From a virus (lineage: Duplodnaviria > Caudoviricetes): a DNA stretch of 64,000 nt. The stretch spans positions 96,001 through 160,000 of IMG/VR virus record IMGVR_UViG_3300032236_001024; one strand, 5' to 3'. How positions within the stretch are numbered: the stretch's first letter is position 1; every line of letters begins with the position of its first letter. The notes beneath the pieces were generated by a model, which searched no databases, had not been told where the DNA came from, and was given only the letters and a program-made list of their open reading frames with translations. This document shows positions 10,643 through 22,138 of this stretch, in pieces. The position numbers and the translations under genes are program-made.

Positions 10643-12929
10643 TACAGTTTTAGTAACAAAGAGAAATGGGCATAAGGAACGTTTGGATTTAAATAAATTC
10701 CATAAGGTTGTCGCATGGGCGTGTGAAGGTATTAATGGCGTATCTGAATCTGAAATTGAACTTAAGTCTCAGATTCAATTCTATTCTGGTATCAAGACTA
10801 CAGATATTCAAGAAACTCTTATCAAGGCTGCAGCTGATCTTATTTCAGAAGATACTCCCGGCTATCAGTATGTTGCAGGTCGTTTGATCAACTATCATCT
10901 AAGGAAGCAAGTTTATGGCGACTATAACATCCCTCATCTTAATGACCATATTTCTAATGTTATTGACGCTGGATATTATGACAAGGATATTAAAGAATGG
11001 TATTCTGTTGATGATATTAATATTCTTAATTCATATATTGACCACAAGCGAGACTGCCAAATTGCTTATGTGGGTATGGAGCAATTTAGAGGCAAGTATC
11101 TAATTAAGAACCGTGCGACGGGACATATATATGAGACACCACAGTTTGCATATATGCTGATTGCGATGGTGCTATTTCGTAATTATCCCAAAGAAACTCG
11201 CTTGAAGTGGGTAAAGGATTTGTATGATGCAACATCTACTTTTGAAATTTCGTTGCCAACTCCTATTATGGCAGGTCTCCGCTCGCCTCAAAAGCAGTTT
11301 TCTTCGTGCGTCCTTATCGAAACTGGCGACTCACTGGATTCAATCAATGCTACAGCTTCTGCTGTTGTTAAGTATGTTTCTCAAAAAGCTGGTATTGGTA
11401 TTAACGCTGGGCGTATTCGTGCTATCGGGTCTCCTATTCGCAATGGTGATACTACACATACTGGTGTCATTCCCTTTTATAAGCACTTTCAGAGCGCAGT
11501 TAAGAGTTGCTCACAAGGTGGTGTCCGTGGCGGTGCAGCAACTCTTTATTACCCTATCTGGCATTTGGAAGTTGAAGACCTATTAGTTCTTAAGAACAAC
11601 AAAGGAACAGAAGATAACCGTATCAGAGGTTTGGACTATGGCGTTCAATTTAACAAGGTTATGTACGAAAGGCTTCTTACTGGAGGTAATATTACTCTTT
11701 TTAGCCCTAATGATGTTCCTGATCTTTATGACTCTTTTTTTATTAATACCGATAAGTTTAGATCATTATACGAGCAAGCTGAAAACAACCCGTCAATTAG
11801 AAAAAAGTCAATCCCAGCAATAGAATTGTTCTCTGCTTTCATGCAAGAGCGCAAGGATACTGGTCGTATTTACTTGATGAATGTCGATCATGCAAATGAT
11901 CATGGTGCTTTTATTAAAGAATTGGCACCTATTCATCAGTCTAATCTTTGTTGTGAAATTGACTTGCCAACCAAGCCACTATCTGATATAAACGATGAGA
12001 ATGGCGAAATTTCACTCTGTACTTTGGCTGCTATTAATTGGGGTAAAATTCGTGAACCTTCTGATTTCGAGCGCCCTTGTACTCTTGCTGTTCGTGCCCT
12101 TGATGAGTTGCTTGACTATCAAGACTATCCAGTGCTTGCAGCCAAGAATTCCACGATGGCAAGACGCCCTTTGGGTGTTGGTATTATTAATCTTGCTTAC
12201 TGGCTTGCTCGTAACGAACTTAGTTATCAGCATATCGATGCTGATGGATTGAACAAGCTTCATACGTTTGCTGAAGCATGGTCTTATTATTTGATTAAAG
12301 CTTCCATTGATCTAGCGGAGGAAAAAGGTGCGTGTCCGAAAAGTAATGAAACAAAATACAGCCAAGGTGCGTTCCCCATACACACCTACAAGAGAGAACT
12401 GGACGATATTGTATCGCCTGAATATAAGATGGACTGGGCTTCGTTGGGCAATAAAGTTCAGCAGTACGGCATCAGGAATTCAACGCTTATGGCTCTCATG
12501 CCATCAGAAACATCAGCACAGATTAGCAACGCAACGAATGGTATTGAGCCACCTCGCTCTCTTGTATCAGTCAAACAGTCGAAAGATGGAGTGCTCAAGC
12601 AAGTTGTACCAGAAGTTCGTAAACTTAAAAAGAAATACGACCTACTTTGGGACCAACAGTCACCCGAAGGATATCTTAAGATTTGCGGGGTATTGCAAAA
12701 GTTCATTGATCAAGGAATATCCGTTAACACCTCGTACAACCCTAAGTTCTACGAAGATGAAAAGATACCGATGAGTGATATGATTGGGCATCTGCTTCTA
12801 GCGTATAAGTTGGGAACGAAACAATTATATTACTTCAACACCAATGATGGTGCTGGTGAATATGAAGACTTGACTCCTTTGGCAAAAGGTGATAATGTGG
12901 AAGAGGATTGTGAATCATGCAAGATTTAA
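10635..12929 (+). CDS. nrdA: class Ia ribonucleotide reductase alpha subunit
   Basis: ATP cone, QFSSCVL, SQGGVRGG, QSNLCCEI, C-terminal CESCKI; uninterrupted. Confidence 0.97.
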   Translation: MINTVLVTKRNGHKERLDLNKFHKVVAWACEGINGVSESEIELKSQIQFYSGIKTTDIQETLIKAAADLISEDTPGYQYVAGRLINYHLRKQVYGDYNIPHLNDHISNVIDAGYYDKDIKEWYSVDDINILNSYIDHKRDCQIAYVGMEQFRGKYLIKNRATGHIYETPQFAYMLIAMVLFRNYPKETRLKWVKDLYDATSTFEISLPTPIMAGLRSPQKQFSSCVLIETGDSLDSINATASAVVKYVSQKAGIGINAGRIRAIGSPIRNGDTTHTGVIPFYKHFQSAVKSCSQGGVRGGAATLYYPIWHLEVEDLLVLKNNKGTEDNRIRGLDYGVQFNKVMYERLLTGGNITLFSPNDVPDLYDSFFINTDKFRSLYEQAENNPSIRKKSIPAIELFSAFMQERKDTGRIYLMNVDHANDHGAFIKELAPIHQSNLCCEIDLPTKPLSDINDENGEISLCTLAAINWGKIREPSDFERPCTLAVRALDELLDYQDYPVLAAKNSTMARRPLGVGIINLAYWLARNELSYQHIDADGLNKLHTFAEAWSYYLIKASIDLAEEKGACPKSNETKYSQGAFPIHTYKRELDDIVSPEYKMDWASLGNKVQQYGIRNSTLMALMPSETSAQISNATNGIEPPRSLVSVKQSKDGVLKQVVPEVRKLKKKYDLLWDQQSPEGYLKICGVLQKFIDQGISVNTSYNPKFYEDEKIPMSDMIGHLLLAYKLGTKQLYYFNTNDGAGEYEDLTPLAKGDNVEEDCESCKI

Positions 12930-13079: not shown

Positions 13080-13292
13080 ATGGATAAGGATCAACTGTAT
13101 AAAGACACCGATATTCGTGTCATCGATCAAAGAATTGGTATGGGTATCGGTGGTTTGAATACAGTTATCCGTCTCTATCATAAACCAACTGGTATCCTTA
13201 TTGAAATGCCACCAGTAATGAGAAATCAGTTCCTTGATAAGAAGTTGGCATTTGAAATGCTTGAGTATGCTCTCAGTGAAATTGGAGAATAA
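13080..13292 (+). CDS. stand-alone release-factor (RF-1) domain-like protein lacking GGQ
   Basis: NTVIRLYHKPTGILIE...RNQFLDKKLAFEML aligns by eye with RF VN.T.SAVRITH.PTGIVV...RSQ..NK..A. Confidence 0.55.
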   Translation: MDKDQLYKDTDIRVIDQRIGMGIGGLNTVIRLYHKPTGILIEMPPVMRNQFLDKKLAFEMLEYALSEIGE

Positions 13293-17610: not shown

Positions 17611-18549
17611 ATGATGGAGCGAAATGAATTAAACCAACATGCTCGTGGTGGTACAGAACTCATGCAAGAACGTCTTCATGGTTCACTTTCCCCAGAACTT
17701 CTAGATCAATTTCAAATTATTCCTTCTCGTGTCAGAGAACTTGATCCTGATAAGAAGAAGATTCTTTGGCTACACGATCTTCCCAATGATCCAGAATCAG
17801 AACATCTAGCAGACCCTGAATCCAGAAAGAGGTTTGATAAAATTGTTTGTGTATCTGATTGGCAGATGCAGTTGTACAATATTACTTCAGCACTCCCATA
17901 TCAGGAATCAATCGTCATCAAGAATGCTATTGAGCCTATTCCGATTGAGAAGAAGGAATATGATGGTACTGTTCGTTTGATCTACCATACGACCCCACAT
18001 CGTGGATTGGAAATCCTTGTTCCTGTCTTTGAAGAACTCTGCAACATGCATGACAATCTTCATCTCGATGTGTATTCTTCATTCAAGATTTATGGATGGG
18101 AACAGCGTGATGCACAATTCCAAGAATTGTTTGATCGCTGCAAGGCAAATGAGAAGATCACCTATCATGGGTCAGTTTCCAATGAAGAAATCCGTGAGGC
18201 TCTTGTTCGATCTCACATCTTTGCATACCCATCAATTTGGCCTGAAACAAGTTGCTTGGCGGCTATTGAAGCAATGTCTGCAAAGAACATTGTTGTGTGT
18301 CCTAACTTCGCAGCTTTGCCTGAGACTTGTGCTGGGTTTGCGATGATGTACCCCTACAACGAGAACAAGAACCATCATGCTATTCAGTTTGCCCATACTC
18401 TCAATGGTGCAATCATGAACGTAAAAACAAATAATGGAAGTCTAGAACCATATCTAGACTTCCAGAAGCAGTACTTTGATTATTTCTATGGCTGGTATAA
18501 GCGAAAGCTAGAGTGGGAAAATCTGCTTTCGAGCATGGTCAGTAACTGA
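17611..18549 (+). CDS. GT-B (GT4-like) glycosyltransferase
   Basis: GGTE start, LWLHD, RGLE, YPSIWPETSCLAAIEAM. Confidence 0.85.
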   Translation: MMERNELNQHARGGTELMQERLHGSLSPELLDQFQIIPSRVRELDPDKKKILWLHDLPNDPESEHLADPESRKRFDKIVCVSDWQMQLYNITSALPYQESIVIKNAIEPIPIEKKEYDGTVRLIYHTTPHRGLEILVPVFEELCNMHDNLHLDVYSSFKIYGWEQRDAQFQELFDRCKANEKITYHGSVSNEEIREALVRSHIFAYPSIWPETSCLAAIEAMSAKNIVVCPNFAALPETCAGFAMMYPYNENKNHHAIQFAHTLNGAIMNVKTNNGSLEPYLDFQKQYFDYFYGWYKRKLEWENLLSSMVSN

Positions 18550-18790
18550 TCCCAAGATACTCGCTGATACCTTTGTACGTGTAAGGAATCCCAAGTTTCT
18601 TACACGTAATTTTTACAGCTTTACCATCTTTGTTTGCTGAGTGACGCATAAATGCAGCGAACATTTTATCACAGACAGTCACTGCTTCATCGATCCCATA
18701 GCAATAATCATTTGGATACTTATTGATGCAGTCCATCAAGCTTTCCAGATACGTGTCTTTGAACTTTTGCTGTTTTGATGTGAGGTTCAT
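18539..18790 (-). CDS. early hypothetical protein
   Basis: RBS-preceded start at MNLTSKQ. Confidence 0.5.
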   Translation of the reverse strand: MNLTSKQQKFKDTYLESLMDCINKYPNDYCYGIDEAVTVCDKMFAAFMRHSANKDGKAVKITCKKLGIPYTYKGISEYLGISY

Positions 18791-18807
18791 TGTAGTTCTC
18801 CTTCTTT

Positions 18808-18990
18808 TCAGTCTGTAGCCCAATCGGTAAGCTTGTAATCCCAGAAGTCAGCGTAGTTCTTAGCTTCCTCTGCCACCTTGTCTACAGCCATTGCTTTCTT
18901 GTAGTAGCCACCTTGTTGTGCTTTGATCTCTTCAAGCTTGGCAATCAGAGCGTCGATGCCTTCATTCATTTTCTGGTCTAAGGAAGTCAT
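18808..18990 (-). CDS. early hypothetical protein
   Basis: Directly after promoter at 19017-19044, GAGGAG RBS. Confidence 0.55.
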   Translation of the reverse strand: MTSLDQKMNEGIDALIAKLEEIKAQQGGYYKKAMAVDKVAEEAKNYADFWDYKLTDWATD

Positions 18991-19016
18991 ATGCTTATCT
19001 CCTCTGTTCATGATTC

Positions 19017-19044
19017 ATATTACCATACTCACATGGGGTGTCAA
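19017..19044 (-). promoter_or_regulatory. early sigma70 promoter
   Basis: TTGACA-N16-TAATAT with upstream A/T tract. Confidence 0.75.
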
Positions 19045-19064
19045 GCGTTTATTTAAAAAAAGAT

Positions 19065-19080
19065 AGGGGATTTCTCCCCT
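19065..19080 (-). terminator. intrinsic terminator
   Basis: AGGGGA/TCCCCT hairpin followed by U-tract on minus strand. Confidence 0.65.
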
Positions 19081-19279
19081 ACCAGTCTATCGTATAGCCG
19101 CTTTCCTTGGGGAAAAGAACCTTGTAGTCGGATTCCACATCCCACATGGCGTGACCTGAGTAACCTTCGTATTGCCAAGCTTGTACTACCTCGCCTTTCT
19201 CATCCATGACTCTGAGGATGTAGTTGAGCATCTGAGACTCAAGTTTGGTGTCGTTTGGAAGTTGGATAACTTTGGTCAT
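19079..19279 (-). CDS. early hypothetical protein
   Basis: ORF with RBS in early cassette. Confidence 0.5.
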   Translation of the reverse strand: MTKVIQLPNDTKLESQMLNYILRVMDEKGEVVQAWQYEGYSGHAMWDVESDYKVLFPKESGYTIDW

Positions 19280-19291
19280 TTTCGGTTCCTT

Positions 19292-19528
19292 TCAGAAGGG
19301 GATTTCTTCGTTTTCAGCGTAAACAGGGTTGAGGTTGTACTGATACGTTCCACAATCCTGCTCTTCAAACTCGTACTCTTCTGGATGAGGCTGCTTAGGA
19401 CCATTGTAGAAGGGGTTAGGATACCAAACGTCACGATCAGAGAGAATCCAAGCCCTATCCTGATTGTCGAAGCCTACGTTACGGGAATATTCCAGATCAG
19501 CCTGTGATTCAGTTGCCAGATAACCCAT
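19292..19528 (-). CDS. early acidic hypothetical protein
   Basis: RAWILSDRDVWYPNPFYNGPKQPHPE; follows promoter at 19553-19580. Confidence 0.55.
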   Translation of the reverse strand: MGYLATESQADLEYSRNVGFDNQDRAWILSDRDVWYPNPFYNGPKQPHPEEYEFEEQDCGTYQYNLNPVYAENEEIPF

Positions 19529-19552
19529 GTCCATCTCCTCTGTTGATGATTC

Positions 19553-19580
19553 ATATTAACATACCCACATAGGGTGTCAA
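19553..19580 (-). promoter_or_regulatory. early sigma70 promoter
   Basis: TTGACA-N16-TAATAT, near-copy of promoter at 19017-19044. Confidence 0.75.
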
Positions 19581-19595
19581 CTGTTTTTATGAAAA

Positions 19596-19619
19596 AAAGA
19601 GGGGTATTATCCCCTCTTT
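19596..19619 (-). terminator. intrinsic terminator
   Basis: AAAGAGGGG/CCCCTCTTT stem with U-tract; loop contains the stop codon of the ArfA-like ORF. Confidence 0.7.
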
Positions 19620-19723
19620 AAGTGCTTGATTTTCCTTGTGTATGCACCTTTTCCCTTTTTGGGTGCAACAATTTTTTGCTGAAACTGGCGTTCAGACAGG
19701 GATTTTGCTGTCAGATTTCGCAT
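19607..19723 (-). CDS. ArfA-like (alternative ribosome-rescue factor A-like) peptide, 38 aa
   Basis: MRNLTAKSLSERQFQQKIVAPKKGKGAYTRKIKHLKRG with GGAGGA RBS; matches ArfA core F.Q.V...KKGKGSY.RK.KH. Confidence 0.65.
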   Translation of the reverse strand: MRNLTAKSLSERQFQQKIVAPKKGKGAYTRKIKHLKRG

Positions 19724-19928
19724 TTCCTCCAATCCTTTGAATTGCCTCTGATATGTGATAATCAAGGCGGTTTGAGAAGTCTTCCAGATGGTACGTATCC
19801 ATGAAATACGCATTGGACTTGATGAAAGATATCAGATAGCCAATGGTGTAATCATCTCCTTTAAGTTGGAGAAGTGTAACAAGATTCTCAATCTTGGTTT
19901 CGATTTTATCATTAGAAGTGGTATTCAT
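19692..19928 (-). CDS. early hypothetical protein
   Basis: ORF coupled to upstream gene. Confidence 0.45.
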   Translation of the reverse strand: MNTTSNDKIETKIENLVTLLQLKGDDYTIGYLISFIKSNAYFMDTYHLEDFSNRLDYHISEAIQRIGGNAKSDSKIPV

Positions 19929-20197
19929 TATATAGCTCCCATGATACGAGGATACGAGCGAATAGGCGAACTTTTTTTGTGAACGACACGAACAAAGTCT
20001 GGGTATCGATCATATTTAGATTGCCAGACCTTGATGAACTTGTCAAGATCACAATCTTCCTCAAGATAAACGGTCTTTCCCTTCACATAGGAATATCCCG
20101 TAAAATCAGTAGGAACAAGACCAAGAGTCTCCAAAACCTTGATGGAAACTGCAACCCAACCGTGACCGGGATCAATGTAGTATTTGAAAACTTTCAT
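19928..20197 (-). CDS. early hypothetical protein
   Basis: DPGHGWVAV...VYLEEDCD motif; RBS. Confidence 0.55.
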   Translation of the reverse strand: MKVFKYYIDPGHGWVAVSIKVLETLGLVPTDFTGYSYVKGKTVYLEEDCDLDKFIKVWQSKYDRYPDFVRVVHKKSSPIRSYPRIMGAI

Positions 20198-20209
20198 TTT
20201 CCTATCTCC

Positions 20210-20404
20210 TTAGCGAACGGGTTCGATGACAAGCTGCAGACCGTTCTTGGTGATGCAGTCATAAAAACCGGGGTGATCCTTATCCTCTTCGATGAAAAGG
20301 GCATACAGATAGGTCTTGGCGTACTCAATCGCAGCCTCATAGGACTCGTAGACGCCAATGACGTTGTAGGCGTAGATGTTTGAGATGTTCACAAGCTTGA
20401 CCAT
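20210..20404 (-). CDS. early hypothetical protein
   Basis: AGGAG RBS before MVKLVN. Confidence 0.5.
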   Translation of the reverse strand: MVKLVNISNIYAYNVIGVYESYEAAIEYAKTYLYALFIEEDKDHPGFYDCITKNGLQLVIEPVR

Positions 20405-20414
20405 GATTTTCTCC

Positions 20415-20591
20415 TTATGCCACAATCTTGGCAGTGAGGGAAGGACTTTTTGTGCTGGTAGCCAGAATTTGAGGACGAGTGACGCCCTCTTCCTTGATTA
20501 CCTCGTAGAAAAACTTACGGGCGGCATTATAGGTTTTGAAAGGAACTTCATGACGGGTCTTTTTGAAGTAGGTGTAGGTGACGGTGAACAT
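20415..20591 (-). CDS. early hypothetical protein (58 aa, not in ORF track)
   Basis: Hand translation MFTVTYTYFKKTRHEVPFKTYNAARKFF...; follows promoter at 20616-20644. Confidence 0.5.
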   Translation of the reverse strand: MFTVTYTYFKKTRHEVPFKTYNAARKFFYEVIKEEGVTRPQILATSTKSPSLTAKIVA

Positions 20592-20615
20592 TGGCTATCT
20601 CCGTTTTGATGATTC

Positions 20616-20644
20616 AATGTAGCAGGGGGTTTCCCCCCTGTCAA
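20616..20644 (-). promoter_or_regulatory. early sigma70 promoter
   Basis: TTGACA-N17-TACATT; spacer contains a G/C hairpin. Confidence 0.6.
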
Positions 20645-20653
20645 CACTTTTTT

Positions 20654-20875
20654 TCAGTTTGTGACGCATATTCCGTTGTGAGCATAAGCACCAACTGCCC
20701 AATCGTTACCGGAAGCAATGACCAGCGGAACGAAGGTTCCGTCCATCTTGCGGTAGATCATGTACTTGGAACCATTTTCCTTGATGGTCTCAAGGCAATT
20801 CTCTAGACGCTTCATAGCACCTTTTTCAGTCTTGAGACCGGGAATTGTTTCGAGCCATGCATTGAGGTTGGTCAT
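20654..20875 (-). CDS. early hypothetical protein
   Basis: ORF with GGAG RBS after promoter at 20903-20930. Confidence 0.55.
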   Translation of the reverse strand: MTNLNAWLETIPGLKTEKGAMKRLENCLETIKENGSKYMIYRKMDGTFVPLVIASGNDWAVGAYAHNGICVTN

Positions 20876-20902
20876 TGGTCATCTCCGTGATTCGATATAG
20901 AT

Positions 20903-20930
20903 AGATTACCACAGCCAGATATGGGGTCAA
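20903..20930 (-). promoter_or_regulatory. early sigma70 promoter (leftward)
   Basis: TTGACC-N16-TAATCT, A-tract upstream. Confidence 0.6.
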
Positions 20931-20973
20931 CTGTTTTTTATAAAAAAAAGAAGAAAAAAGACAATCTTTTTGG

Positions 20974-21001
20974 TTGACACCACCTACATAATGCTTATAA
21001 T
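20974..21001 (+). promoter_or_regulatory. early sigma70 promoter (rightward, divergent)
   Basis: TTGACA-N16-TATAAT. Confidence 0.8.
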
Positions 21002-21028
21002 GGTCACATCAACAACGGAGAAAGCCAC

Positions 21029-22138
21029 ATGGCTAGGGCTAATGCCAAGATCAAGGTCAGGAAGTCTCATTCTGAGACCTATCTGATCAACAAGAAGTAC
21101 TACGGTGACGAGCCTACTTTCGAGGCTGGTCATGAGCGTTCCAAGATGCTTGGGGCGTTCAACTGGTACAACACGATGGCTGATGAGGATGATGTTCGTC
21201 AGTACATCACTGAGTATCTCAAGTCTGTCAAGGCGGATATGGAAGCAAAGAAGTTTACTCGTGTCCCTTTCATGCGTGTTCCTCGTACAGCTGCAGCAGT
21301 TGTCCGTATGCACATGCGTGGTGCGGTTCTAGACGATGGTATGCTGGATCGTGCCAAGACCAGCATCGCTGATTGCATGAAGTATGCGGAGCAGGAGAAG
21401 AAGGACGACAATGTGGTTCGTCTTTCTATTCAGGACCATATGAACAACAAGGTCTCTGAGTTCATTGGCGAGATTGAGTCCATCCTTGATGATGGTGCTG
21501 TCGGTTTCTCCATGTACACCTCTCTGCAGAGCAACAACTTTCCTGCTGCGCTCTCGACTCGTGTTGCTGAGTACTATCGTCCCATCCAGCAAGAGATTGC
21601 GGATGCGATTGCCAAGAAAGACCCGCAACTGGTGGAAGCTTATTCTGGCTATACCAAGCCTCAGATGAAGGCAAAGCTGGCTCTGTACACTGGCATCATT
21701 GACGACTGCGAAAAGCACAGCGGAAACGTCCGCAAGGCTCGTAAGCCTCGCAAGAAGAAGGCTGTGAGCCCAGCCAAGAAGCTTAAGAGCTTCCAGTACC
21801 AGAAAGAGGATGCATCGTTAAAAATCTCCTCTGTCAATCCTGAGAGTGTTCTGGGAGCCCAAGAGCTTTGGACGTTCAACACGAAGAGCAAGGTGCTTTC
21901 TGTGTTTCGTGCAAGGGGTCCAGCTGGTCTTGAAGTCAATCGTACAGCAATCGCTGGTTACGATGCTGATACCTCCATGTCCAAGAAGATTGGACGCAAG
22001 ACGGAGGAAATTCTCAAGACAGTCACCACTGGTGGTAAGGTGACACTCAGGAAACTGTTTGACACCATCAACACCGACAAACTCAAGTTTGTTGACCGCC
22101 TAAATAGTAGCACAGTACTATTGAAGGTGGTTAGGTGA
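21029..22138 (+). CDS. conserved T4-like hypothetical protein
   Basis: Long ORF with GC-richer codon usage; helical N-terminus, C-terminal VNPESVLGAQELWTFNTK domain. Confidence 0.65.
   Translation: MARANAKIKVRKSHSETYLINKKYYGDEPTFEAGHERSKMLGAFNWYNTMADEDDVRQYITEYLKSVKADMEAKKFTRVPFMRVPRTAAAVVRMHMRGAVLDDGMLDRAKTSIADCMKYAEQEKKDDNVVRLSIQDHMNNKVSEFIGEIESILDDGAVGFSMYTSLQSNNFPAALSTRVAEYYRPIQQEIADAIAKKDPQLVEAYSGYTKPQMKAKLALYTGIIDDCEKHSGNVRKARKPRKKKAVSPAKKLKSFQYQKEDASLKISSVNPESVLGAQELWTFNTKSKVLSVFRARGPAGLEVNRTAIAGYDADTSMSKKIGRKTEEILKTVTTGGKVTLRKLFDTINTDKLKFVDRLNSSTVLLKVVR

Follow-up and report, generated by a model that had tools for sequence, protein, structure and literature searches.

A minimal ArfA homologue of the short type in a T4-like lake phage

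By sequence, the small leftward gene at 19607..19723 (minus strand) of the window, meaning the whole 64,000-nt stretch of DNA analysed (C1:96001-160000), is a minimal homologue of the ribosome-rescue factor ArfA, of a short type common to SAR11 chromosomes and alphaproteobacterial phages. Its product probably serves as a rescue factor that is made constitutively from an early-type unit and relies on the host's release factor.

The phage is a T4-like lake phage (record of 202,141 bp, with direct terminal repeats), in which a T4-type RNase H and both ribonucleotide reductase subunits were present. The best cultured relatives of the RNase H (about 50% identity) were those of Methylophilales phage Melnitz, Stenotrophomonas phage DLP6 and cyanomyoviruses. 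The tRNA genes of the window numbered thirteen (Leu, Arg and Ser with two each, and Ile, Gln, Val, Tyr, Thr, Trp and Gly with one each); they were scattered among leftward genes at 40611-63184 (minus strand), and with them the phage invests in translation. No phage tmRNA, SmpB or full release factor was found in the genome, so the phage must use host factors. A 70-aa ORF located between nrdA and nrdB (window 13080-13292, plus strand) matched the RF-1 domain weakly (17.1 bits, below the cut-off of 35; profile positions 31-71) and reads GGL at the GGQ position of release factors; it could be a second mini-protein related to translation termination, or a chance match.

Gene model, transcription unit and terminator

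The ArfA-like gene comprises 38 codons, from the ATG at 19723-19721 to the TAA at 19609-19607, and the window translation of this minus-strand ORF (19723..19607) gave the 38-aa peptide MRNLTAKSLSERQFQQKIVAPKKGKGAYTRKIKHLKRG. A mechanical ORF list contained a longer form of 68 aa in the same frame, with its ATG at 19813. The preliminary description had held this listed start to be too long, and relatives with an in-frame stop two codons before the short ATG (L008 and L010-L015) bore this out: the 38-aa start is correct, and the long form is excluded. In the DNA alignment of the relatives, the ATG and the sequence downstream of it were conserved and the upstream sequence diverged; the 68-aa model was rejected on this divergence together with the in-frame stops. 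The upstream gene is a different one in L005 and meets the same ATG in an ATGA overlap, and gene callers picked 38 aa in the relatives.

Copies 84-97% identical to the window gene were found on five metagenomic and six IMG/VR contigs, and a second group with 62% identity (L016-L023, L045 and L090) had the identical 38-aa frame, with 23 residues from the start to the GKG glycine and then 15 to the stop. Between the window and close relatives pN/pS was 0.04-0.14 (Nei-Gojobori counts), with 6 non-synonymous and 17 synonymous differences from L005; the gene is under strong purifying selection. Conservation of start and frame, the upstream stops and the pN/pS values establish therefore that the gene is real, coding and 38 codons long. 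It is highly improbable that this model is wrong and that either the 68-aa frame from 19813 is real or the 38 codons are open only by chance within the end of the upstream gene. The 68-aa frame does appear in the ORF list, and the start of the gene overlaps the upstream ORF by 32 nt, but the upstream stops, the other gene that abuts the ATG in L005, the choice of the gene callers and the pN/pS in the 38-aa frame all speak against it. The upstream ORF (78 aa, function unknown; 19692..19928, minus strand), whose last 32 nt form the overlap, was conserved, with the same overlap called in relatives, and matched no Pfam or PHROG family. A Shine-Dalgarno-like GGAGG was read from the sequence at 19726..19730 (minus strand), 2 nt 5' of the ATG. 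This spacing is short; AAGGA was present 9 nt upstream, and GGAG was retained in relatives L006-L008.

Five small ORFs run leftward here, with the ArfA-like gene in last place. A pattern scan found a sigma-70-type promoter (TTGACA-17-TACATT) at 20616..20644 (minus strand), probably the start of this five-gene unit; between it and 19619 the minus strand showed no terminator-like site. Directly behind the terminator of the gene lies the sigma-70-type promoter of the next unit (TTGACA-16-TAATAT; 19553..19580, minus strand), which was conserved in relatives. Terminator-promoter cassettes, in which a GC-rich hairpin and a U-tract precede a TTGACA-16-TAATAT promoter, were repeated at 19083-19017 and 19619-19553 (minus strand) and separate groups of small ORFs. 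These cassettes resemble the promoter-early stem-loop modules described in T4-type phages. The earlier placement of the gene in an early-type unit agreed with the sigma-70-type promoter and with the cassette layout, and the five-gene unit would be expressed early. An Rfam search of 18400-21100 gave no match.

An intrinsic terminator was located at 19592..19619 (minus strand) by pattern scan and folding, with a 9-bp stem from 19619 to 19596 and a 7-U tract that runs after the hairpin to 19592 (-14 kcal/mol, z -4.6). Its loop, AUAAUA, contains the UAA stop of the ArfA-like gene, just as had been described. This stop-in-loop terminator was kept in 11/11 close relatives. Two of them (L013 and L015) have G for A in the 5' arm, a substitution that makes Arg37 a Gly, together with a compensatory C for T in the 3' arm, and the stem stays paired; the end of the peptide is accordingly shaped in part by RNA structure. 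In relatives further away the gene stops at TGA or TAA and has no hairpin, and none of the 30 other short viral forms or the 60 genomic forms that were examined showed the layout. That the stop-in-loop could mark regulation in the manner of the E. coli non-stop hairpin was rejected, since only the 11 closest relatives have the layout, whose absence beyond them points to local genome packing and not to a family trait. Because the in-frame TAA precedes the 3' arm of the terminator and the U-tract, the terminated transcript keeps the stop codon, and with the stop retained the phage peptide is not made from a non-stop mRNA. Synthesis from a non-stop mRNA, through a hairpin cut by RNase III or a terminator within the ORF, which brings ArfA under tmRNA repression, was thus not found at this gene, with its TAA in frame and a stem of only 9 bp.

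Homology to ArfA and residue-level comparison

The Pfam ArfA family (PF03889; gathering score 25.5 bits) matched the 38-mer with 31.9 bits (E 8.7e-8) over profile positions 22-43 of 44 only, which confirmed the ArfA homology proposed in the preliminary description. ArfA was the one Pfam-A family found, for the 38-aa and the 68-aa forms alike, and in a six-frame scan of the whole 202,141-bp genome the ArfA-like gene was the sole match over the family cut-off (29.9 bits, E 9.5e-8). Among all PDB chains (phmmer), those of E. coli ArfA were the only matches; off the ribosome, ArfA is not ordered. The profile built from 47 short-type sequences aligned gap-free with that of gammaproteobacterial ArfA (hhalign; probability 99%, E 3e-18), which places phage residues 1-38 opposite residues 12-49 of E. 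coli ArfA. The E. coli core cited in the preliminary description equals residues 14-45 of the MG1655 protein. The peptide had also been said to have already the length of the short active form; this did not hold, as the mature E. coli form has 52-55 aa and extends beyond the 38-aa peptide at either end. The NCBIfam search returned no family for the peptide, PHROGs gave weak matches only, to two families of unknown function, and megablast of the locus against cultured phages gave no match.

Residues 2-16 of E. coli ArfA form an N-terminal minidomain whose folding opens RF2; Thr7 and Lys8 bind h44, Ile11 packs on Ala18, and the A18T change inactivates the protein with RF2 still bound (PMC5378476). 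A hydrophobic patch made up of Leu19, Leu24 and Phe25 binds RF2 Trp319, Val198 and Phe217, RF2 213-217 pairs with the ArfA backbone at residues 25-29, and the mRNA tunnel holds residues 31-48 (PMC5378476). Contacts with RF2 are made by residues 15-31 (PMC6299226). The shortest functional form reported is a truncation at Asn47, and shorter forms fail (PMC5378476, citing Chadani 2011).

The phage peptide has in common with E. coli ArfA the tunnel tail KKGKG-S/A-Y-x-RK-x-KH, as well as Phe25 and the RF2-pairing strand (Gln27, Arg/Lys28 and Val/Ile29). Its basic C-terminal half (PKKGKGAYTRKIKHLKRG) aligned with the E. coli tunnel residues 31-48, with the KGKGS and KH motifs present, and FQQKI of the phage peptide aligned with FRQRV of the E. 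coli RF2-pairing strand (residues 25-29). The C-terminus is the equivalent of Gly49, two residues beyond the minimal functional end at Asn47. Across the 47 short-type sequences, K23, G24, Y28 and R30 were invariant, K25, G26, A6 and L9 were conserved in at least 94%, and position 14, which corresponds to Phe25, was F or Y in 94%. Conserved in E. coli numbering were Asn14, Leu20, Phe/Tyr25, Gln27, Arg/Lys28, Val/Ile29 and KKGKG-S/A-Y-x-RK; the KH pair was conserved in the window gene's own clade. Channel sensing and RF2 docking are well supported, as judged from these alignments.

The N-terminal part of the peptide departs from E. coli ArfA. Residues 1-11 are lacking, Thr7, Lys8 and Ile11 among them, and the phage peptide starts at the equivalent of Lys12; Ala18, Leu19 and Leu24 are replaced by Lys, Ser and Gln. 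The position equivalent to Ala18 was K or R in 96% of the 47 short-type sequences. The RF2-activating minidomain (residues tested 2-20, plus Leu24) was incomplete, with only Asn14 and Leu20 kept. In place of the minidomain residues there is a nearly invariant A6-K7-x-L9 motif, peculiar to the short type. Because residues 1-11 are missing and a Lys stands at Ala18, RF2 activation cannot be assumed to proceed as in E. coli.

Relatives in phages and SAR11 chromosomes

A pattern and tblastn scan found ArfA-like relatives encoded on at least 235 IMG/VR contigs. Matches in cultured phages (tblastn) were to phages of Caulobacter (Cr30), Brevundimonas, Erythrobacter, Citromicrobium and a Roseobacter-group host; ArfA was already the annotation at two. 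Phage genes that carry this annotation are g10 of Citromicrobium phage vB_CbaS-RXM (PMC8953757), gp30 of pelagiphage HTVC027P, which is transcribed early and late in infection (PMC12753301), and a gene of Brevundimonas phage Kikimora (GenBank). The window gene joins these annotated phage homologues and is not unique; it is the short ArfA class as a whole that is under-appreciated, not the window copy.

An unannotated ArfA-like ORF was observed in Caulobacter phage Cr30 (L001:2447-2599; KF301602.1 about 11130-11290; ...RNPIAKALRSSHLQPKIVKPRKGKGSFTRKGK). Cr30 is T4-like, and the ORF is flanked on both sides by RNA-ligase genes within 2.5 kb. Control searches found no ArfA match in Caulobacter itself, and Cr30 in Caulobacter would be a tractable system in which to test a phage ArfA-like gene. 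At 34 of the best 78 IMG/VR loci, the ArfA-like segment was fused to a C-terminal extension of 60-100 aa. This extension (L025-L059, e.g. L030:2995-3297 and L029:2980-3405) has a conserved ...GQWSARKAQML...GGGY pattern and matched no Pfam family; some of the fused frames also reach about 40 aa further upstream.

Short ArfA-like ORFs of 35-43 aa with their own stop were observed on SAR11 chromosomes (L091-L162, e.g. L100:1992-2108). In the Pelagibacteraceae sample, taken from genomes G001-G085, PF03889 was matched in 56/81 genomes (42 over the cut-off) by open frames of 35-70 aa. The neighbours were housekeeping genes at L100, the one SAR11 locus checked. The number of residues before and after the GKG glycine was 34/32 in enterobacterial ArfAs versus about 23-30/12-15 in the short type. 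Reviews and a survey of 15,259 genomes describe ArfA as confined to Gamma- and some Betaproteobacteria, and the survey found it in 0/2,376 Alphaproteobacteria (PMC8012679, PMC11633108). No publication that links ArfA to a SAR11 chromosome was found in the literature searched.

Proposed function, alternatives and known systems

In the proposed mechanism, a ribosome that has run to the 3' end of a truncated mRNA and stalled there would receive the basic C-terminal half in its empty mRNA channel. The release factor would then hydrolyse the peptidyl-tRNA, and the ribosome would be recycled with the peptide untagged for degradation. Ribosome binding, RF2 recruitment, timing and benefit are all predicted here. 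Given the normal stop codon and the sigma-70-type unit, production of the peptide would begin as infection starts and, in contrast to that of E. coli ArfA, would not depend on tmRNA status. Activity of ArfA requires an almost empty mRNA channel (PMC5378476), so the natural substrates would be ribosomes on cleaved mRNAs, which could arise from host shut-off by the phage, mRNA-cutting toxins or defence nucleases. The likely benefit would be that ribosomes are kept available while host mRNAs, and some phage mRNAs, are cut. Rescue from host mRNA or tRNA nuclease defences had been suggested earlier. The first half of this suggestion may stand, as only mRNA cleavage products would be direct substrates, and the second does not: since ArfA acts only with an empty channel, ribosomes stalled by tRNA nucleases on intact mRNA would not be direct substrates (PMC5378476).

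The divergent N-terminus bears on two other modes of action. The peptide might be a rescue factor that works otherwise than ArfA, for example by recruiting both RF1 and RF2 through RN-x-x-AK-x-L, as does ArfT of Francisella tularensis, a 40-aa protein that works with RF1 or RF2 and is reportedly unrelated to ArfA in sequence (PMC6299226). The size of the phage peptide is near that of ArfT (PMC6299226), its stop codon is normal as in arfT, and its N-terminus diverges from Leu19 and Leu24, the RF2-specificity residues that contact Trp319 (PMC5378476). This mode is nevertheless unlikely in view of the homology to ArfA, the full KGKG-S/A-Y-x-RK and the aromatic residue at Phe25, in a comparison for which ArfT was taken by description only. 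Even less likely is an ArfA-derived channel plug that binds non-stop ribosomes, and perhaps compact RF2, and triggers no release, with the purpose of outcompeting tmRNA-SmpB or modulating host rescue and not of recycling ribosomes. A conserved tunnel tail and RF2-pairing strand next to a truncated minidomain and a Lys at Ala18 would fit such a plug, as would the E. coli A18T protein, which binds RF2 yet is inactive (PMC5378476). A self-inhibitor is implausible, however, in the 56/81 sampled SAR11 genomes with the short form, which has housekeeping neighbours at L100, and the 96-98% conservation of A6, K7 and L9 argues for a working N-terminal module. A host release factor-dependent rescue factor is kept as the preferred reading.

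A broader reading, possible though tentative, is that short ArfA constitutes a distinct rescue class with its own RN-x-x-AK-x-L module, perhaps used with RF1 as well as RF2, and that phages infecting Alphaproteobacteria and related hosts spread it to counter, early on, defences that cleave mRNA or the host shut-off that they themselves impose. It is suggested by the missing residues 1-11, the Lys at Ala18 and the lack of regulation through non-stop mRNA. If it were true, the textbook restriction of ArfA to Beta- and Gammaproteobacteria would be overturned. Should the peptide be active, it would with its 38 residues be about the smallest known ArfA and would define the minimal parts for empty-channel sensing and release factor switching; phages would bring their own rescue factor, not repressible by host tmRNA, as a cheap route to free ribosomes while messages are destroyed in infection. 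With copies on at least 235 IMG/VR contigs and in SAR11, one biochemical test could re-draw the distribution of release factor-dependent rescue.

Compared with known systems, the phage peptide is identical to E. coli ArfA (YhdL, PF03889; PDB 5U4I, 5MDV, 5H5U and 5MGP) at 16/38 residues. E. coli ArfA is encoded as 72 aa and is 52-55 aa when mature, whereas the phage-encoded peptide has 38 aa; RNase III cleavage yields a non-stop mRNA in E. coli, whereas the phage gene has a normal TAA stop. The SAR11 ORFs start 25-30 residues before the GKG and have their own stop 12-14 residues after it. They have the AK-x-L and KPKKGKGSY motifs in common with the phage peptide, to which they are 35-51% identical, but are cellular and richer in lysine. 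ArfT, known here by description, is very small like the phage peptide, and its C-terminal motif is likewise basic and its stop normal, but it has KKGGSTNKK where the ArfA type has KGKGS (PMC6299226). RXM g10, HTVC027P gp30 and the Kikimora gene are, like the window gene, small ORFs with a PF03889 match, and share the core RN-x-x-A-x-x-L ... KG-K/R-GSY-x-RK. They differ in host and in phage type, coming from a siphovirus and other non-T4-like phages; RXM g10 has 60 aa and a longer tail, and the window peptide is the shortest form. Unlike these annotated phage ArfAs, the window gene lies in a T4-like early cassette and has its stop in the terminator loop, and the layout of its unit is similar to that of the early regions of T4-type phages.
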